Program-made: the position numbers and the translations under genes
Part shown: piece by piece, positions 3,416 through 20,896 of the stretch
Numbering within the stretch: the stretch's first letter is position 1
Layout of the letters: each line of letters begins with the position of its first letter
The notes under the pieces: model-generated
The model's input: only the letters and a program-made list of their open reading frames with translations
Told to the model about the DNA's origin: nothing
Database searches by the model: none
Origin: a virus
Taxonomy: Duplodnaviria; Heunggongvirae; Uroviricota; Caudoviricetes
Reading direction: 5' to 3' (one strand)
IMG/VR virus record: IMGVR_UViG_2541047745_000011
Coordinates: 1-43,359 of that record
Length of the DNA: 43,359 bases

Positions 3416-3432
3416 AGGGTAATGACTCCAAC

Positions 3433-3936
3433 TTATTGATAGTGTTTTATGTTCAGATAATGCCCGATGACTTTGTCATGCAGCTCCACCGATTTTGAGA
3501 ACGACAGCGACTTCCGTCCCAGCCGTGCCAGGTGCTGCCTCAGATTCAGGTTATGCCGCTCAATTCGCTGCGTATATCGCTTGCTGATTACGTGCAGCTT
3601 TCCCTTCAGGCGGGATTCATACAGCGGCCAGCCATCCGTCATCCATATCACCACGTCAAAGGGTGACAGCAGGCTCATAAGACGCCCCAGCGTCGCCATA
3701 GTGCGTTCACCGAATACGTGCGCAACAACCGTCTTCCGGAGCCTGTCATACGCGTAAAACAGCCAGCGCTGGCGCGATTTAGCCCCGACGTATCCCCACT
3801 GTTCGTCCATTTCCGCGCAGACGATGACGTCACTGCCCGGCTGTATGCGCGAGGTTACCGACTGCGGCCTGAGTTTTTTAAATGGCGGAAAATCGTGTTG
3901 AGGCCAACGCCCATAATGCGGGCGGTTGCCCGGCAT
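3433..3936 (-). CDS. insB: IS1 transposase InsB reading frame
   Basis: Translation [25 protein letters not shown]...[12 protein letters not shown] matches IS1 InsB. Confidence 0.9.
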
Positions 3937-4130
3937 CCAACGCCATTCATGGCCATATCAATGATTTTCTGGTGCGTACCGGGTTGAGAAGCGGTGTAAG
4001 TGAACTGCAGTTGCCATGTTTTACGGCAGTGAGAGCAGAGATAGCGCTGATGTCCGGCGGTGCTTTTGCCGTTACGCACCACCCCGTCAGTAGCTGAACA
4101 GGAGGGACAGCTGATAGAAACAGAAGCCAC
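3855..4130 (-). CDS. insA: IS1 InsA
   Basis: Translation [42 protein letters not shown]... matches IS1 InsA. Confidence 0.9.
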
Positions 4131-4185
4131 TGGAGCACCTCAAAAACATCATCATACACTAAATCAGTAAGTTGGCAGCATCACC

Positions 4186-4245: not shown

Positions 4246-4313
4246 TTAATTTGCTCCAGATACAAGGAATCGCCGCAGCATTGCCACAGTGATGCATTAT
4301 TAATCAAACAAAG

Positions 4314-4328
4314 AGACCACTGTGGTCT
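4314..4328. promoter_or_regulatory. Perfect 15-bp palindrome AGACCAC-T-GTGGTCT, candidate Mnt operator overlapping divergent promoters
   Basis: Symmetric site midway between the mnt start (4392, +) and the native tailspike start (4245, -); P22 Mnt binds a palindromic operator in the equivalent position. Confidence 0.4.
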
Positions 4329-4391
4329 TATTGAGGATGCAACCAGCAGATAATAAGATGCCGATCCACTCACAAAAGCGAGGCATCAAGA

Positions 4392-4643
4392 ATGGGAAGA
4401 GATGACCCGCAATTTAATCTGCGGCTACCTTACGAATTAAAGGAAAAACTAAAACAGCGAGCCAAATCCAATGGCCGCTCTCTTAATTCAGAATTAGTTC
4501 AGATAGTGACTGATGCTGTATCAAAGCCATCCAAAATTTCAGGCTATCGAGACGATGCGGAACGCATCGCTGATGAGCAGTCCGAACTTGTTAAGAAGAT
4601 GGTGTTTGATACGCTGAAGGATTTGTACAAAAAACCCACCTGA
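4392..4643 (+). CDS. mnt: Mnt repressor (ribbon-helix-helix, Arc/Mnt family)
   Basis: 83 aa, MGRDDPQFNLRLPYELKEKLKQRAKSNGRSLNSELVQIV...ELVKKMVFDTLKDLYKK closely matches P22 Mnt; GAGG RBS upstream. Confidence 0.9.
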   Translation: MGRDDPQFNLRLPYELKEKLKQRAKSNGRSLNSELVQIVTDAVSKPSKISGYRDDAERIADEQSELVKKMVFDTLKDLYKKPT

Positions 4644-5789: not shown

Positions 5790-7787
5790 CTATTCTGACA
5801 ACGCATCAGACTTAGCCCCCTGAGTAAGGGCGTTAATGGCCTTTTGCGCCTGCTGCATGGCTTTCTCAAACGCTGTTGATCCGCGTGGGGTGTTTGCCAT
5901 TCGGAGCATTGCATTTCTGAATGGCTCGCTCTCATAGGCGCGAGTAAGAAGTCCGTAGCTTACTGCTGCGCCAGTTGTAGCCGGGTTCATTGCCGTCCCA
6001 TACCCAATTATGAACGGGATAGTTTGCTGCCCTGTGGGTGTTGTTACTGCCGCTTTTGCAGCCTGCTGCGTGGATTGCAGGTAGTTTTTTAATCCTTTCA
6101 GATAAGCAGCGTCCTGCCCCTTAAATGTGATGCCAGTCTGGTTTTGCAGGATGTTAAGCTGCCGAAGGAACTGGTCAGGGGATCCGCCAGATTTCTCCAT
6201 CGCCTTTCCAATGATGCCATTGCGCATTTGCGTCCTGCCAACACGACCAACTGAGTTATACAGAGTCTTAATTTCCGATTTGTTCTTGCTGAATAGCATG
6301 TTGTTGACAACTTCCGGCGTCAGGTCGCCTTTCATGAGAACATTCTTCAGCCTGGTATTCTTTAGTTTCGCCGCTTCGTCAGCGTAGACGGCATTGGCCT
6401 GCTGATATTTACGGAGAGTATCGTTGCCAAGATTCTGACCAATGGCACCATTGATATCGTCGGTCATTGCCTTGTAAACGCGCTGAATGGCAGCATCGGA
6501 ACGGTTTGGTAACACTGGTCGCTCACCTTTCACGTCCATTCTGAACTGGCTGCGCAGGTCGCTTAATTGCTTCAAATCCAGATTTACCGGACCATCAGGA
6601 CCAGCATTGCGAACAAGTTCATCACGATATGATTGAAGTTTTGAAATAGTCTCGTTATCAGCAACCTTACCAAGCTTCTGCAGGTTAGATATCTCAGTAT
6701 CAATCTGCTGAATTGCTCGCGCAGGCTGGATATTGACTCCCGCCATTGCATTCTGAACCTGCTCAAGACGGTTCCCTGCAGCACGACGAATTCCTGATGT
6801 TTTCGCTTTAAGGCTGTCAATAACAACAGCTGGATCATACTCCCCGAATTTATTGGCAAATCTCTGCACCAACTGGCTTCTCGCTTCCTGTTGCGTTGCT
6901 CTCATTCCGCTTGTGCCAGCCAGAGGGATATTTTCTGCTGTAGTCTGCGCCATTTTTCCGACGCGGGAAGTAGGTTGTAACAGGTCCGTGGTGTGCAGAG
7001 GAACTCCTTCACGCTCTGCAAATCTGATAGCCTGCTGCGCTTCTGGCGCAATAGCACCGCGAACGCCACGATAAGCAGCACCTAATCCACGTCCAGCAGC
7101 GTTAATAGCACCGCCAGCCAGCACACCAACGCCTAAATCGGTGGCGAGGGCTTCCGCATCATCTTTCGCACTATTTGCAGCAAGTGATCCAACTGCGTTT
7201 TCTGCGAGAAGTCGTGTTGCCCCCTGAGCAATTCGACCAGCAAGTGTTGGTGCCTGTGCCGCCGCTCTCTCAACGCCAGCAGGAGTGAGGTAAGGCAATG
7301 CTTCAGCAAATACCCTTCCCTCTGTCGTTTGTGGAGTCAGCGCGCCTTGCTGAAGGCCAAAGTCCTGCTCTAATCCCTGCGTTGTTACTCGTGGCGCTGG
7401 TTGATATGTACCATCGCCAATGCCGAGTTTACCGCCAGCCCAAGCCGCCGCGCTTGTTACAGCATCTGCAACTGATGCAGGTATGTTTGCCACGTTCACG
7501 CCAGCCTGCACCAGTCCGCGACCAGTCTCTTTCACTGCTTCACCAAGATCAGACATAAATCCACTTTGCTGTGGTTGTTGCTGTGCTACTGGTTGCTGTG
7601 TATCCACTGGCTGCACAGATGGCAATGGATAGGCAGCATAGAAAGCTTGCTTAGCCTGCTCTGCATTTTCTCCGGCTTGCGGGGCCACGACTTCATTGAA
7701 GTATTGCTCCTGAGCCTGCGCTTTTTGTTCTGGTGCTAACGCCTGATACTGTGGAGAGGCGATAACATCTTTCCATGCTTTAGCCAT
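5790..7787 (-). CDS. Ejection (injection) protein, P22 gp16-like
   Basis: 665 aa, Ala/Gln/Gly-rich; last gene of the ejection-protein block in P22 gene order 14-7-20-16. Confidence 0.7.
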   Translation of the reverse strand: MAKAWKDVIASPQYQALAPEQKAQAQEQYFNEVVAPQAGENAEQAKQAFYAAYPLPSVQPVDTQQPVAQQQPQQSGFMSDLGEAVKETGRGLVQAGVNVANIPASVADAVTSAAAWAGGKLGIGDGTYQPAPRVTTQGLEQDFGLQQGALTPQTTEGRVFAEALPYLTPAGVERAAAQAPTLAGRIAQGATRLLAENAVGSLAANSAKDDAEALATDLGVGVLAGGAINAAGRGLGAAYRGVRGAIAPEAQQAIRFAEREGVPLHTTDLLQPTSRVGKMAQTTAENIPLAGTSGMRATQQEARSQLVQRFANKFGEYDPAVVIDSLKAKTSGIRRAAGNRLEQVQNAMAGVNIQPARAIQQIDTEISNLQKLGKVADNETISKLQSYRDELVRNAGPDGPVNLDLKQLSDLRSQFRMDVKGERPVLPNRSDAAIQRVYKAMTDDINGAIGQNLGNDTLRKYQQANAVYADEAAKLKNTRLKNVLMKGDLTPEVVNNMLFSKNKSEIKTLYNSVGRVGRTQMRNGIIGKAMEKSGGSPDQFLRQLNILQNQTGITFKGQDAAYLKGLKNYLQSTQQAAKAAVTTPTGQQTIPFIIGYGTAMNPATTGAAVSYGLLTRAYESEPFRNAMLRMANTPRGSTAFEKAMQQAQKAINALTQGAKSDALSE

Positions 7788-17809: not shown

Positions 17810-19225
17810 TCAACCTACACCACAAGGAATTGAGTAACTGGAATAGTCGGGTTGCGCAGCCGACTCCGGGCAATGCATACACATCATCAACGCATCAGCC
17901 AGGTTAGGAGATGGAATACCGAGCTTCTGCTTCATTTCGACCTTAGTCATAAGCTCCAGCTTCCCGTTGTTATTGAATTTGCGCTGAATCTGCGTCAGTT
18001 CTGCAAACAGCTTCTCCAGCATCTTCTCGCCTATCGCTTCTTTGTCGAAACTCAGCATGTCGTCGGGGTCTGCATACTCACCGTAGACAACCGCCCGATA
18101 TGTCAGATACAGCCTGTCAGCCAGCGCGTAATAGAATTGCGCTCGCTTATTGCGGAACACATCACCAATAGTGCGAACGTTGTCTCCCTGTACGACTTCA
18201 TCAGCCCATGCTCCGGCCTGATATGGTGCATCTTCATCAAATGGCGATTCGCTGCCCTTGAACATCGTGGCGGTTATTTTCTTGCCGGAGAACGCTTCCG
18301 TTGTCTGTCTGCGTAGCCCGGCACCAACACCATCACCATCCCACAGGTAGTGGTCAGCGCCGTCTTCAATCGCCAGAGAAGTAGCCCAGTCAGCGCCCTC
18401 GTTGATGTCCATCAGCAGACCTTCGGCAATGCGCTTAACTACCGAACCGTGACGCGATGCATAACCTTTAGCATCCGGCCCTGTATCTGATGGGTCATGT
18501 GCAGAGACAACAGCGCCTTTCGCTTTCCATCCGAGTTTCTTGTGCGCATCGGTTGCGGCTTCAAGCCATTCACGTTTGATGATTGCCATATCACTTGCGC
18601 TTACTGGCTCACCAAGCCAGATGTGACGATACAGTGTCGGATTTCTGCGTTTACACTCTTCCATCTCCAGACGGAGAACTTCAGGAAAGTGCAGGTTGTC
18701 GGTGTAGTTCACCGTCAGCAGACAAATATCATCAGGAGGATTTACGACGAATCGCTGATAGGTATCGTCGAGGATGTTCTTCGGGTTGAAGCTCACCCAT
18801 ATTTCGGAAAATGGCTTACGGATGGTTGGTATCAGGATATCCCATGATTCCTTTGTTACCGCTTCCGCTTCTTCCACCCAGCAGATATCAATGCCTTCGA
18901 GCGATTTAATCTTCGTCGGGTTGTTTTTGATGCCGTAGAACATGAACTCAGCATTCGTTCCGAGATGACGAATCATTGAACGCTGAATTTCAAACTCAGC
19001 CGAATACCCTTCACGCTCGATGGTATCTTCAAGCAACCGGATTACCGAATCGCTGATACTGTTTTGCAGTTCACGAGCGCAGAGAATACGCACAGGTTGC
19101 CGACGCGCCGCCTCAATAAGCAGCCTCGCAATTGCCCATGACTTACCGCTACCTCGACCGCCTTTGGCGACTTTGTAGCGATGCGCCTCAATGAACGGTT
19201 CAAAGATAGGATTAATCGAGGTCAT
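17810..19225 (-). CDS. Terminase large subunit
   Basis: 471 aa; Walker A-like GGRGSGKS near N-terminus; directly downstream of the small subunit. Confidence 0.9.
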   Translation of the reverse strand: MTSINPIFEPFIEAHRYKVAKGGRGSGKSWAIARLLIEAARRQPVRILCARELQNSISDSVIRLLEDTIEREGYSAEFEIQRSMIRHLGTNAEFMFYGIKNNPTKIKSLEGIDICWVEEAEAVTKESWDILIPTIRKPFSEIWVSFNPKNILDDTYQRFVVNPPDDICLLTVNYTDNLHFPEVLRLEMEECKRRNPTLYRHIWLGEPVSASDMAIIKREWLEAATDAHKKLGWKAKGAVVSAHDPSDTGPDAKGYASRHGSVVKRIAEGLLMDINEGADWATSLAIEDGADHYLWDGDGVGAGLRRQTTEAFSGKKITATMFKGSESPFDEDAPYQAGAWADEVVQGDNVRTIGDVFRNKRAQFYYALADRLYLTYRAVVYGEYADPDDMLSFDKEAIGEKMLEKLFAELTQIQRKFNNNGKLELMTKVEMKQKLGIPSPNLADALMMCMHCPESAAQPDYSSYSIPCGVG

Positions 19226-19662
19226 TTTCCGAACAGAGTGCTCATCGGTGATGTTTCAATCTGGATTGCGCCGCCGTCTTTGCCTGTTAGCTCGTGATCA
19301 ACCTTGTCGCGCCATTTATCCTTCTGTCTGTTCTTAAGCCAGAAGATGGCGGCGGTTGTATCAGGCGGGTAATACTTCTCAAGCGGAGTTTCGACAATTC
19401 TGTTTTCAATAACACGAATATCGATGTCTGGAGCCACGAAGCCCATAGCGCGTTGATAAAGACGATCACTAACTTCTGCATCAGCGACGGCCTTACCCTT
19501 TTTTATGGACTCCGAAAACTCAGGATAATCAAGCTTCCACTTGTTAATAGTTGACTCACTGACTTCGAAGAAATCAGCAAGCTCTGCATCGGTGTAGCCC
19601 AGCAAGCACAGTTTGCGTGCCTGTTCGGCGTACGCCTCTTGATACTTTGTTGGGCGCGCCAT
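19222..19662 (-). CDS. Terminase small subunit (Sf6 gp1-like)
   Basis: 146 aa; C-terminus GKDGGAIQIETSPMSTLFGK matches Sf6 small terminase; overlaps TerL start. Confidence 0.8.
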   Translation of the reverse strand: MARPTKYQEAYAEQARKLCLLGYTDAELADFFEVSESTINKWKLDYPEFSESIKKGKAVADAEVSDRLYQRAMGFVAPDIDIRVIENRIVETPLEKYYPPDTTAAIFWLKNRQKDKWRDKVDHELTGKDGGAIQIETSPMSTLFGK

Positions 19663-19664
19663 GT

Positions 19665-19907
19665 TTATGCTCCGGTAGTGAACAGGTCTAACGCTTCCTT
19701 CGATTTACGCACCGCTTCGATAGTGCGGGTCGTGATATCTGAATTAGCGCCGCCTGACTGGAAGTGAATTTTGAATAGCTCAAGCTTCAGCTCGTCAGTG
19801 CCAATGAACTGAAATGCTTCTTCTGCGGCTGCGTTCTGGTTCATGACCAGTTTGTAAATCTCTAACTGGAATTTCTGTTCTTCAGTCATGGGAATAATCT
19901 CTGCCAT
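19665..19907 (-). CDS. Hypothetical protein upstream of terminase genes
   Basis: 80-aa ORF coupled to TerS; no recognisable family. Confidence 0.4.
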   Translation of the reverse strand: MAEIIPMTEEQKFQLEIYKLVMNQNAAAEEAFQFIGTDELKLELFKIHFQSGGANSDITTRTIEAVRKSKEALDLFTTGA

Positions 19908-20163
19908 TATTGGCTCCGTTTATCCGTTAAAAGGGATATCAGTTAAGTTATCCCGTGCAGGGTATAAGCCATTGTCGAGACCACTCATTGAATGGTCTCT
20001 GCAATAACCGATATCTTTCCATCAGTCCGCCACCACAAAGAATCTTTTTTGCCATAAGGCTGGAGGTTCATCTTTCAGTGGCTGCCAGTGTTATTTCCCC
20101 ACTTTCTGGCTTGGGTTGTTTCGTGGTACTGCCGTAATGCAAAAACTGGATTAACCTGCGAAA

Positions 20164-20694
20164 TCACACCATTCCGGGCAAATACATTTGCACTTCATTT
20201 GCCGCTCTCTCACGTGCAACATGAAGCAATCTTTTTCGCCCACCAACGCCCCACTTAGCCATTTGGCTTGCGCACTGGCTTATCGCTTTGGTTTCAGTAT
20301 TGATGATGTGATCGATTCTATTCAGACGGGACATTGCGCCAACGCCGAGACGGACAACCGTTTTGAAAACTTCATAAACTTCGATTTCAAATTCCGGCTT
20401 AATCCATGCTGCATATCTGATTGCCAGAAGTTCAACACCCCACACACCTGGTTCTGCACCACCTTTGATTATTTTAAGTGGCTGAATTTGTTCCAAAGTG
20501 CTTTTTTGCACTTTGGCCTCCAGTGCTTTTATGAAGCGTTTTATCTGCGCGCTACGCAAAAACTGGCTTGGGCGCTGTTGCTCTGTAGCCTCTCCATTTG
20601 CAACTGCTGCTGCATGGAGATCGTTTAAGTTGTAGCGTCCATCCTCATCAACACGAACGGACACACCATTGACAATAACTGTTGGGTACTTCAT
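20164..20694 (-). CDS. KilA-N domain protein
   Basis: N-terminal pattern VIVNGVSVRVDEDGRYNLNDLH ... GVWGVELLAIRYAAWIKPEFEIEVYEVF resembles the KilA-N fold. Confidence 0.55.
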   Translation of the reverse strand: MKYPTVIVNGVSVRVDEDGRYNLNDLHAAAVANGEATEQQRPSQFLRSAQIKRFIKALEAKVQKSTLEQIQPLKIIKGGAEPGVWGVELLAIRYAAWIKPEFEIEVYEVFKTVVRLGVGAMSRLNRIDHIINTETKAISQCASQMAKWGVGGRKRLLHVARERAANEVQMYLPGMV

Positions 20695-20841
20695 CAGTAA
20701 TTACCTTTTAGTGATGAACCTTGTCACACAGGATTCCGGCCCACAGAAAGGTACCGATCACCAAACCGGCATCCTCAAGGGTCATCCTGAAAGGTTCTGT
20801 GTTCATAAGTCGCGCGTGTGAAGCGCGTTTACTGCGGACAT

Positions 20842-20864
20842 AAAAAAGCCCCGCATCGCGAGGC
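20842..20864 (-). terminator. Rho-independent terminator downstream of Rz
   Basis: Minus-strand RNA GCCUCGC-GAU-GCGGGGC followed by UUUUUU. Confidence 0.5.
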
Positions 20865-20896
20865 TCATTAAATGGACTTTGTGATTTGCAAAAAAA

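Follow-up and report, generated by a model that had tools for sequence, protein, structure and literature searches.

The stretch of DNA analysed here has 43,359 nucleotides (IMG/VR virus record IMGVR_UViG_2541047745_000011; hereafter, the window, to whose positions all feature coordinates refer) and, judging by its sequence, it is a P22/CUS-3-like Escherichia coli prophage. The locus of interest lies between its lysis cassette and its terminase genes, where an initial annotation had described a KilA-N gene, two flanking noncoding stretches of ~200-250 bp and an inverted repeat linked to the Mnt repressor. This locus is probably a mosaic junction in the late operon, at which a near-invariant core is a structured RNA element related to the Rfam family Proteo-phage-1 and the inverted repeat is an RNA hairpin and not a Mnt operator, a reading that is held, as a whole, with somewhat better than even confidence. 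The core was found at 20009-20132 of the minus strand, which is the strand of all the late genes, and it is part of a conserved unit of about 125-130 nt (~20005-20135). The two stretches first reported as noncoding measured 202 bp (upstream gap, 20695-20896) and 256 bp (downstream gap, 19908-20163), and their placement was confirmed, with Rz on one side and the DUF2560 and terminase genes on the other. They were rightly called noncoding, but they are not empty, both being made of conserved modules, and in the downstream gap the inverted repeat had been reported while the main content, the conserved structured-RNA-like block, had been overlooked.

A sensitive search with the 256-bp downstream gap returned 200 phage records with identities of 80-99%. 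The records with the core included the podoviruses P22, L/ST64T, Sf6, CUS-3 and epsilon34 and the siphoviruses HK022, HK140, HK446 and HK106, and the match was independent of the identity of the upstream gene. When 117 distinct copies from IMG/VR and phage records were aligned, almost all the columns of the core were more than 95% conserved, and 3′ of ...GGAAAGACAUC at least five unrelated sequences followed in different phages. Moreover, the core alone was present in 1120 of 5426 complete E. coli genomes (21%); under it, RefSeq mostly had no feature in the E. coli matches sampled, had only the neighbouring Rha-family gene in some of them, and had an RNA label in none. An element of the enterobacterial type was also seen on short contigs of metagenome-assembled genomes (L202, L203, L210, L212 and L214, with Nanosynbacter, Bacillota and Collinsella labels), which most likely represent mis-binned enterobacterial phage DNA.

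Regarding its structure, the minus strand of the core folded with z = -3.2, versus z = -1.6 for the plus strand. The helices proposed for the minus strand were, from 5′ to 3′, the short hairpin P2 (CCCA 20115-20112 with UGGG 20101-20098), a loop-tail pairing (GCCAG 20110-20106 with CUGGC 20088-20084), a closing helix (GCCACUG 20082-20076 with UGGUGGC 20035-20029), two helices enclosed by it (AAAGA 20075-20071 with UCUUU 20041-20037, and GCC 20060-20058 with GGC 20053-20051) and a terminal hairpin (CUGAUG 20025-20020, loop GAAAGA, UAUCGG 20013-20008). In the enteric alignment, 97.7% of the cells in these helices were paired, compared with 30-54% in the slid controls. Furthermore, GGA motifs, which bring CsrA/RsmA binding to mind, were seen in the loop of the terminal hairpin.

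Proteo-phage-1 (Rfam RF03044) is an orphan 'sRNA' motif of proteobacterial phages, to which the main text of its description assigns no function (Weinberg et al. 2017, PMC5737381). In a permissive Rfam scan, the model of this family was placed at 20080-20151 of the minus strand with 21.6 bits (E=0.08-0.29), below the gathering score of 42, covering all of its 82 positions and having AAGCC.G..AGUG and AAA.AACAC.GGCAGCC in common with the window. The order of the blocks was also the same, as the loop AAGCCNGNNAGUG of the family is followed by a 3′ tail capable of pairing, AAAnAACACNGGCAGCC, and the loop AAGCCAGAAAGUG (20112-20100) of the window is followed by the tail GAAAUAACACUGGCAGCC (20097-20080), both on the minus strand. 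On the other hand, the first hairpin of the model (P1) is unclear in the window, with no consistent pairing since the upstream flank differs between copies, and the second (P2) is cut to 3-4 bp, forming only as CCCA/UGGG without variation.

Using the Rfam consensus as a pattern, instead of the sequence of the window, 59 high-G+C viral contigs and 31 genome loci were fetched, and the Pseudomonas sequences were true members of RF03044, with 85.6, 71.7, 45.2 and 42.2 bits for the representatives against the gathering score of 42. The RNA of the Pseudomonas prophages extends ~110 nt past the RF03044 model (~195 nt in total, of which the model describes the first 82), with 11 pairs presenting compensatory changes. 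This extended form was seen, for example, at loci L144 (5263-5458) and L149 (7775-7960) in alignment A3, where several of the 3′ helices were compensated. At its 3′ end, the Pseudomonas RNA has UGGCGGAC and a hairpin with a covarying stem and the loop GGAAAGA, and the block of the window ends in UGGCGGAC-CUGAUG-GAAAGA-UAUCGG; the closing GCC...GGC helix, UGGCGGAC and the terminal hairpin are common to both. In particular, a covariance model (R1) made from 24 Pseudomonas-prophage sequences, with no enteric one among them, was run unfiltered on both strands of the window (86.7 kb), and its top match was full-length, at 20009-20132 of the minus strand, with 17.9 bits and E~1.5e-4 (next best, E=0.62), values that are rough given the shortened calibration of the model. 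The ends of this match coincided with those of the conserved block, which had been defined independently. Moreover, the loop-tail pairing changed on both sides, from GCCGG/CCGGC in Pseudomonas to GCCAG/CUGGC in the window. As to the differences, the core lacks one entire hairpin that the Pseudomonas form has (CGCGCACCC...GGGUGGCGCG), and the next branch is much shorter. Owing to the missing or shrunken hairpins and the sub-threshold score, the block was treated as a reduced variant and not as a member by the Rfam criterion. Thus, the similarity being observed directly, the core would represent a reduced, A+U-rich variant of the Proteo-phage-1 family, and we infer that it has both its descent and its function in common with the Pseudomonas RNA.

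Members of Proteo-phage-1 were also found in the Pseudomonas brassicacearum group (locus L191, ~7290-7491, and locus L194, ~3780-3976, both on the minus strand), where they lie on the core chromosome, apparently outside prophages. As read from the translations, the open reading frames (ORFs) around them resemble a ZIP-type transporter, a KGG-repeat stress protein, a Sir2-type deacetylase and a LysR-type regulator, the RNA being located between the stress protein and the deacetylase. A U-run comes after the terminal hairpin at the end of these copies, whose appearance suggests a stand-alone RNA gene. The limited literature searched, on P22 orf80/rha, Proteo-phage-1, BTP1 small RNAs and P22-like non-coding regions, yielded nothing that describes the element.

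Several points weigh against this relationship, and the roughness of the R1 E-values is one of them. At gathering thresholds, Rfam gave no match in the whole window, nor in the P22, HK022 and E. coli copies. In the reciprocal search with an enteric model (R2), the best match was rightly placed in eight of eight Pseudomonas loci, though with weak E-values of 0.01-1.9, and this test, informative to a small degree, was partly circular, as the loci had been chosen by a motif that the model shares. Furthermore, no pair of the enteric core changed on both sides, the absence of covariation being due to a sequence that barely varies, and the structure predicted for the enteric core leans on the Pseudomonas relatives and on thermodynamics. 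Part of the near-invariance itself might come from frequent homologous recombination where modules meet, and not from selection on an RNA. Finally, the genomic context differs between the two groups: the enteric core comes after the lysis genes, whereas the Pseudomonas RNA is found either ahead of recombination genes (group i; Rad52-like, Gp157) or between NinG, of the nin genes, and the DUF2280/terminase late genes (group ii). These differing contexts among the Pseudomonas phages also argue against a leader tied to one downstream gene.

The inverted repeat, GAGACCA-N9-TGGTCTC, is present in the window, although one base off the position first given for it (19977-19999 instead of 19976-19998), and it forms the upper stem of a two-tier RNA hairpin of 18 bp, H2 (19967-20009, minus strand). 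The lower stem of H2 has 8 bp (GGUUAUUG paired with CAAUGGCU) and is separated by a 2x2 internal loop (CA opposite GA) from the upper stem of 10 bp, consisting of GAGACCAUUC (19999-19990), the loop AAU and GAGUGGUCUC (19986-19977). The folding energy of 19925-20010 on the minus strand was -32.5 kcal/mol (z = -6.2). A search for the repeat in related phages, a check suggested in the initial annotation, showed that it recurs there in 12 sequence variants, nearly all of which keep the pairing: 98.7% of the cells were paired, versus 37-57% with slid partners. Eight of 13 pairs varied on one side and remained paired (A-U, G·U or G-C); the fourth pair, for example, is A-U in the window, G·U in most copies and G-C in P22. 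In phage L, three G·U pairs abolish the DNA palindrome and keep the RNA stem. All these changes were one-sided shifts involving a G·U pair, and the shuffle control for H2 was uninformative. The G·U pairs of H2 and of its look-alike H1 would turn into A·C mismatches on the plus strand and, therefore, the strand of the late transcript is the one that folds. On the other hand, perfect inverted repeats of 7 bp with spacers of 3-12 are not unusual in the window, with 50 of them compared with 27 in shuffled sequences. The repeat was also considered as an intrinsic terminator and rejected, since a U-run is missing after the stem in both orientations, where GACAAUGGCUUAUACC (minus strand) and TGCAATAACC (plus strand) stand instead; it was not called by the terminator scan either.

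The hairpin H1 (CAUUA-CA-AAGCCCAUC-UACG-GGUGGGCUU-GA-UAAUG) resembles H2, including the CA/GA internal loop, and precedes the core in most phages without a cargo gene at that point. Among the 128 copies with enough flanking sequence, H1 appeared in 77, H2 in 89 and both in 51, and the H1-core-H2 segment of HK140 folded with z = -7.5 (hairpin at locus L189, 1060-1105). In the Stx phage 2851, Ss-VASD and mEp460, a different hairpin occupies the place of H2 (e.g. AAAGCCA...UGGCUUU), with the lower-stem partner GAUAAUGG being kept. It was also seen that the hairpin together with GAYAAUG looks duplicated at both ends of the core, a picture that an insertion of the core into a hairpin of this kind, or an exchange there, might leave. 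A third hairpin (19929-19954, minus strand; GGGAUA-N10-UAUCCC followed by UUUU) folds and is weakly terminator-like, and it is conserved as well in the three phages just mentioned; 3′ of it come the Shine-Dalgarno sequence GGAG (19914-19917, minus strand) and then the start codon of the DUF2560 gene.

Our best guess is that the late transcript is cut to give the core as a stable non-coding RNA. It would be made as part of the Q-antiterminated late mRNA, as no promoter of its own was seen: a scan for sigma-70 promoters found none in either gap, nor upstream of the core in HK140. Endonucleolytic processing at the two flanking hairpins of the two-tier type, which resemble RNase III substrates, would then set the RNA free or at least delimit and stabilise it. 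Instead of serving as a leader dedicated to the gene that follows, it would work as a folded non-coding RNA, probably one that binds a protein. A folded RNA acting in its own right is suggested by the relatives of the P. brassicacearum group outside prophages, because these end in a hairpin and a U-run. Taken as a whole, this mechanism is put forward tentatively. It is likewise possible, although we would not count it as probable, that the block with its look-alike hairpins is the enterobacterial branch of a much larger family of longer structured phage RNAs (~130-200 nt), of which RF03044 would cover just the 5′ end; in P22, L, Sf6, HK022 and CUS-3, it would be excised from the late transcript and bind a protein in trans late in infection (e.g. 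in host takeover or counter-defence).

Instead of an RNA acting in trans, the element could act in cis only on the late mRNA, as a determinant of processing or stability or as a signal for processive antitermination in the manner of HK022 put or Bacillus EAR, securing the head-tail operon past the Rz terminator. In all the annotated relatives inspected, the element lies on the late strand, within the operon and after a terminator-like hairpin, with more than 20 kb of genes ahead; the copies of the Pseudomonas prophages are also on the gene strand before long operons, and the lack of a promoter in the scans would equally suit this role. However, these phages encode Q and qut, which already provide processive antitermination (as annotated in HK140), the downstream gene varies among phages, and the Pseudomonas chromosomal relatives appear as stand-alone copies, with hairpin and U-run, outside phage operons. 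For these reasons, a role in cis only is regarded as rather unlikely.

An absence of any RNA function was judged somewhat less likely still. The core would then be a linker or boundary between exchangeable modules, kept nearly identical by frequent homologous recombination among lambdoid phages, and the hairpins would be leftover terminators. Its location agrees with this, at the place where modules change, with variable cargo upstream and at least five different junctions directly downstream, and identities of 95-99% across phages with unrelated virion genes are typical of recent DNA exchange; the lack of covariation within the enteric copies points in the same direction. Nevertheless, a mere linker would be expected neither to present the order of motifs and the layout of helices of a covarying Pseudomonas RNA family, nor to fold much better on one strand, nor to have hairpin variants that consistently keep the pairing on the late strand. 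A linker and an RNA function are compatible and not mutually exclusive.

Returning to the RNA hairpin proposed for the repeat, the initial annotation had instead noted that its half-sites were the same as those of the candidate Mnt operator and had suggested testing it for Mnt binding. The repeat would thus be a second binding site, placing the late operon or the cargo gene under the control of the immI repressor. The mnt gene is located at 4392-4643 of the plus strand (Pfam Arc plus Repressor_Mnt), in the immI region, and the candidate operator, AGAGACCAC-T-GTGGTCTT (4311-4329), lies 63 bp upstream of it; its core reads AGACCAC-T-GTGGTCT, with the 7-1-7 geometry of the operator annotated in P22 (GGTCCAC-G-GTGGACC; NC_002371, 14822-14844). 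In favour of this link, the repeat has GAGACCAC as its left half, exactly as the candidate operator does at 4313-4320, the right half agrees in 7 of 8 positions, and AGACCA...TGGTCT pairs occurred only at these two sites of the window, versus 0.08 expected by composition in what was a post hoc test. The half-sites do indeed have the hexamer AGACCA/TGGTCT in common, but the 7-mers are separated by 7 nt in the repeat and by 1 nt in the operator (+6 bp), which gives a spacing of 7-7-7. Moreover, the identical, perfect repeat appears in HK140, a siphovirus with a complete annotation that lists none of mnt, arc and ant; the P22 copy (GAGGCCA...TGGCCTC) does not resemble the operator of P22 itself (GGTCCAC); and the fourth base, which gives the likeness to the operator, is a common A/G polymorphism (29 copies with A vs. 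38 with G). The loss of the DNA palindrome in phage L and the position of the repeat, 16 kb from immI and within a transcribed late operon, also speak against an operator. The G allele was found in HK022, whose record has no annotation in that region and which we take to lack immI. Altogether, the claimed link did not hold, the binding of Mnt at this site is highly improbable and, on the sequence comparisons made, the repeat is not a Mnt operator.

The Mnt protein of the window is 76% identical to that of P22, with Gln in place of His6, and the replacement of His6 together with that of the half-site GGTCCAC by AGACCAC may be a natural case in which the specificity of the repressor and its operator changed together. 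An IS1 was also observed in immI (~3418-4185; InsB 3433-3936 and InsA 3855-4130, both on the minus strand), ~125 bp from the candidate operator, cutting off the leftward gene on the arc/ant side that starts MTDITANVVVSMPSQLFTMA. This prophage has probably lost the activity of its immI antirepressor arm.

It is also very unlikely that the downstream gap encodes a small protein. An ORF of 35 codons (19948-20055, minus strand) has been annotated in some relatives. In P22 it goes under the name orf25, and in L, SE1 and ST64T it makes up the first ~35 codons of orf118. However, it has no Shine-Dalgarno sequence or other ribosome-binding site and no PHROG match, its ATG is lost (AAG) in 6 of the 117 copies, and changes in the length of an A-run shift the frame in another count of 5/117. 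Past codon 15, it continues into at least five unrelated C-termini, and the substitutions R->G, P->L and S->P maintain the RNA pairing. As for orf118, it arises from a deletion of 36 nt by which the ORF and the DUF2560 homologue are joined in frame, which is why annotators call a fused gene. The ORF was therefore judged not to be a gene, and the core is non-coding.

Lastly, it is scarcely credible that the plus strand is the functional one, as an antisense transcript or as a terminator for leftward anti-late transcription: the phage L record (MW013503) annotates a plus-strand terminator in the core (1136-1180, corresponding to window ~20034-20078) and a consensus-based scan gave the same weak plus-strand site in HK140, but this is probably an artefact of terminator prediction, being an A/U-rich stem of 9 pairs with 3 G-C that is complementary to one of the internal helices in the core. 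The fold of the plus strand lies within the range of shuffled sequences (z = -1.6), G·U pairs in both H1 and H2 become A·C mismatches there, and the models R1 and RF03044 match the minus strand only.

With regard to the rest of the junction, the KilA-N gene (20164-20694, minus strand, 176 aa) was confirmed by a domain search. PF04383 was matched with E=7.3e-18 and 64.8 bits (cut-off, 23.8), residues 9-113 aligning with positions 6-104 of the 107 in the profile. The domain is N-terminal, and the identity to P1 KilA (34% in the N-terminal domain) and to the APSE protein G (49%), which are among the more distant relatives of the protein, is confined to residues ~6-121. Closer relatives are ST104 orf45, SE1 gp47 and ST64B sb54 (90-95% identity). 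A DNA-binding or regulatory role may be suggested by family names, such as that of PHROG 129 ('transcriptional regulator', E=1.6e-60), and the RefSeq label already reads KilA-N domain-containing protein. The description of the site as a variable cargo site was also borne out: Rha-type genes were found there in P22, CUS-3 and Sf101, KilA-N genes in SE1, ST104, UPF_BP1 and MG40 (90-95% protein identity), Gp49-family genes or genes annotated as DNA-binding or 'anti-CRISPR' in other relatives, and an unrelated small gene in HK140, while phage L has no gene between Rz and the downstream element. The KilA-N gene is a known, already annotated cargo gene at a known variable site.

The stretch 19600-21000 was 100% identical to E. 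coli strain 317 (NZ_CP023357.1), and its flanks were ~97% identical to the P22-like phage CUS-3. The combination of a KilA-N cassette of the Salmonella type with E. coli flanks of the CUS-3 type was found, at a query coverage of at least 80%, in 54 of the 5426 complete E. coli genomes. The KilA-N gene is inserted, together with a conserved non-coding leader of its own, after the Rz terminator. This terminator-like hairpin, T1 (20840-20866, minus strand; hairpin 20846-20866 plus U-run), is formed by GAGCCUCGC-GAU-GCGGGGCUU followed by UUUUUUAU, directly after Rz. It has 9 pairs, 6 of them G-C, according to the terminator scan; it is annotated as 'terminator' in phage Emek, is 100% conserved in several phages and is also present in mEp460.

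The leader itself (20695-20839, extending to ~20845, ~150 nt, minus strand; fold z = -2.2) accompanies the KilA-N gene in ST64B, SE1 and UPF_BP1, and Stx phages of the 933W type have a stretch with 87% identity to it. It contains an ORF of 32 codons (20708-20806, minus strand) that is probably not a gene: compared with phage 2851, the leader has indels of 5, 1 and 2 nt that do not keep the reading frame, which makes this small ORF (UPF_BP1 gp30, PHROG 16173) unlikely to be real. No sigma-70-like promoter was found in the leader by the promoter scan, and the nearby promoter-like matches were inside coding sequence only, at chance level. With respect to the promoter and terminator of their own by which morons are recognised, T1 precedes the KilA-N cassette and the weak hairpin with UUUU (19929-19954) follows the core. 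Other sub-threshold Rfam matches (asX2, isrJ, GcvB and IS009) lay over the T1 terminator or were at chance level, as was that of isrJ (17.9 bits vs. 37, E=1.8).

The remaining genes of the region are all on the minus strand. Upstream, the cargo site is bordered by the Rz spanin gene (20897-21346; Pfam Phage_lysis, E=5.2e-36), the last of the lysis cassette, which is preceded by the endolysin (21331-21834) and holin (21806-22009) genes and, ahead of the cassette, by a homing-endonuclease-like gene with HNH_3 and AP2 domains (22501-23013). Downstream, the border is the DUF2560 gene (19665-19907; PF10834, E=1.1e-43), a homologue of P22 orf80 and HK620 hkbM, followed by the genes of the small (19222-19662) and large (17810-19225) terminase subunits.

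In terms of significance, few non-coding stretches of lambdoid late operons are as conserved as the core, which is common to podoviruses and siphoviruses with unrelated virions, and the records that annotate it at all do so as orf25 or as the start of orf118. A KilA-N cargo gene at a variable site was already known; what is new here is the core as a variant of a functionally orphan RNA family, missed by the Rfam threshold and either unannotated or called an ORF. If the core is indeed a branch of that family, a functional non-coding RNA would be unannotated in phage records and in a fifth of the complete E. coli genomes. Through the link with Proteo-phage-1, an orphan family gains genetically tractable hosts (Salmonella for P22; E. 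coli for HK022 and CUS-3), which makes its function directly testable. Furthermore, the RF03044 model is indicated to be both too short and too narrow, and three likely mis-annotations are corrected: orf25, the N-terminal extension of orf118 and the small ORF of the KilA-N leader.

Among the closest known systems are the rha-orf25-orf80 region of P22 and the KilA-N cassettes of ST104 (orf45), SE1 (gp47) and ST64B (sb54), which hold the identical position in the late operon. These cassettes have the leader, the core and the downstream hairpin as in the window, with SE1 and ST104 differing by the 36-nt deletion 3′ of H2, whereas P22 carries Rha in place of KilA-N. The geometry of H2 (8 bp, 2x2 loop, 10 bp) looks, by analogy, like that of an RNase III processing hairpin. 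From background knowledge, those of T7 (R sites), the lambda N-leader and sib are likewise interrupted helices of ~18-20 bp between the cistrons of a long phage transcript, although the T7 R sites have asymmetric internal loops and that of H2 is symmetric. As regards the Mnt operator of P22, it is an inverted repeat too, and the hexamer AGACCA is common to the repeat and the candidate operator of the window, but the repeat departs from it in its 7-7-7 spacing, lies outside immI and does not co-vary with the operator sequence.

The isrK-orf45-anrP-isrJ locus of Gifsy-1, in which anrP encodes an anti-repressor-like protein (PMC4825925), resembles the upstream gap in its layout only, with a terminator, then a leader and then a regulator gene. 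Its leader, like that of the window, is conserved in nucleotides and not in amino acids and has a small ORF inside; on the other hand, the window has no Rfam match to IsrK, and its small ORF does not overlap the start codon of KilA-N. As a homologue of the leader, this locus was tried and rejected, being kept as an analogy only. Finally, Proteo-phage-1 is more G+C-rich than the core and, like the core, it is located in proteobacterial prophages and on the strand of the surrounding operon.

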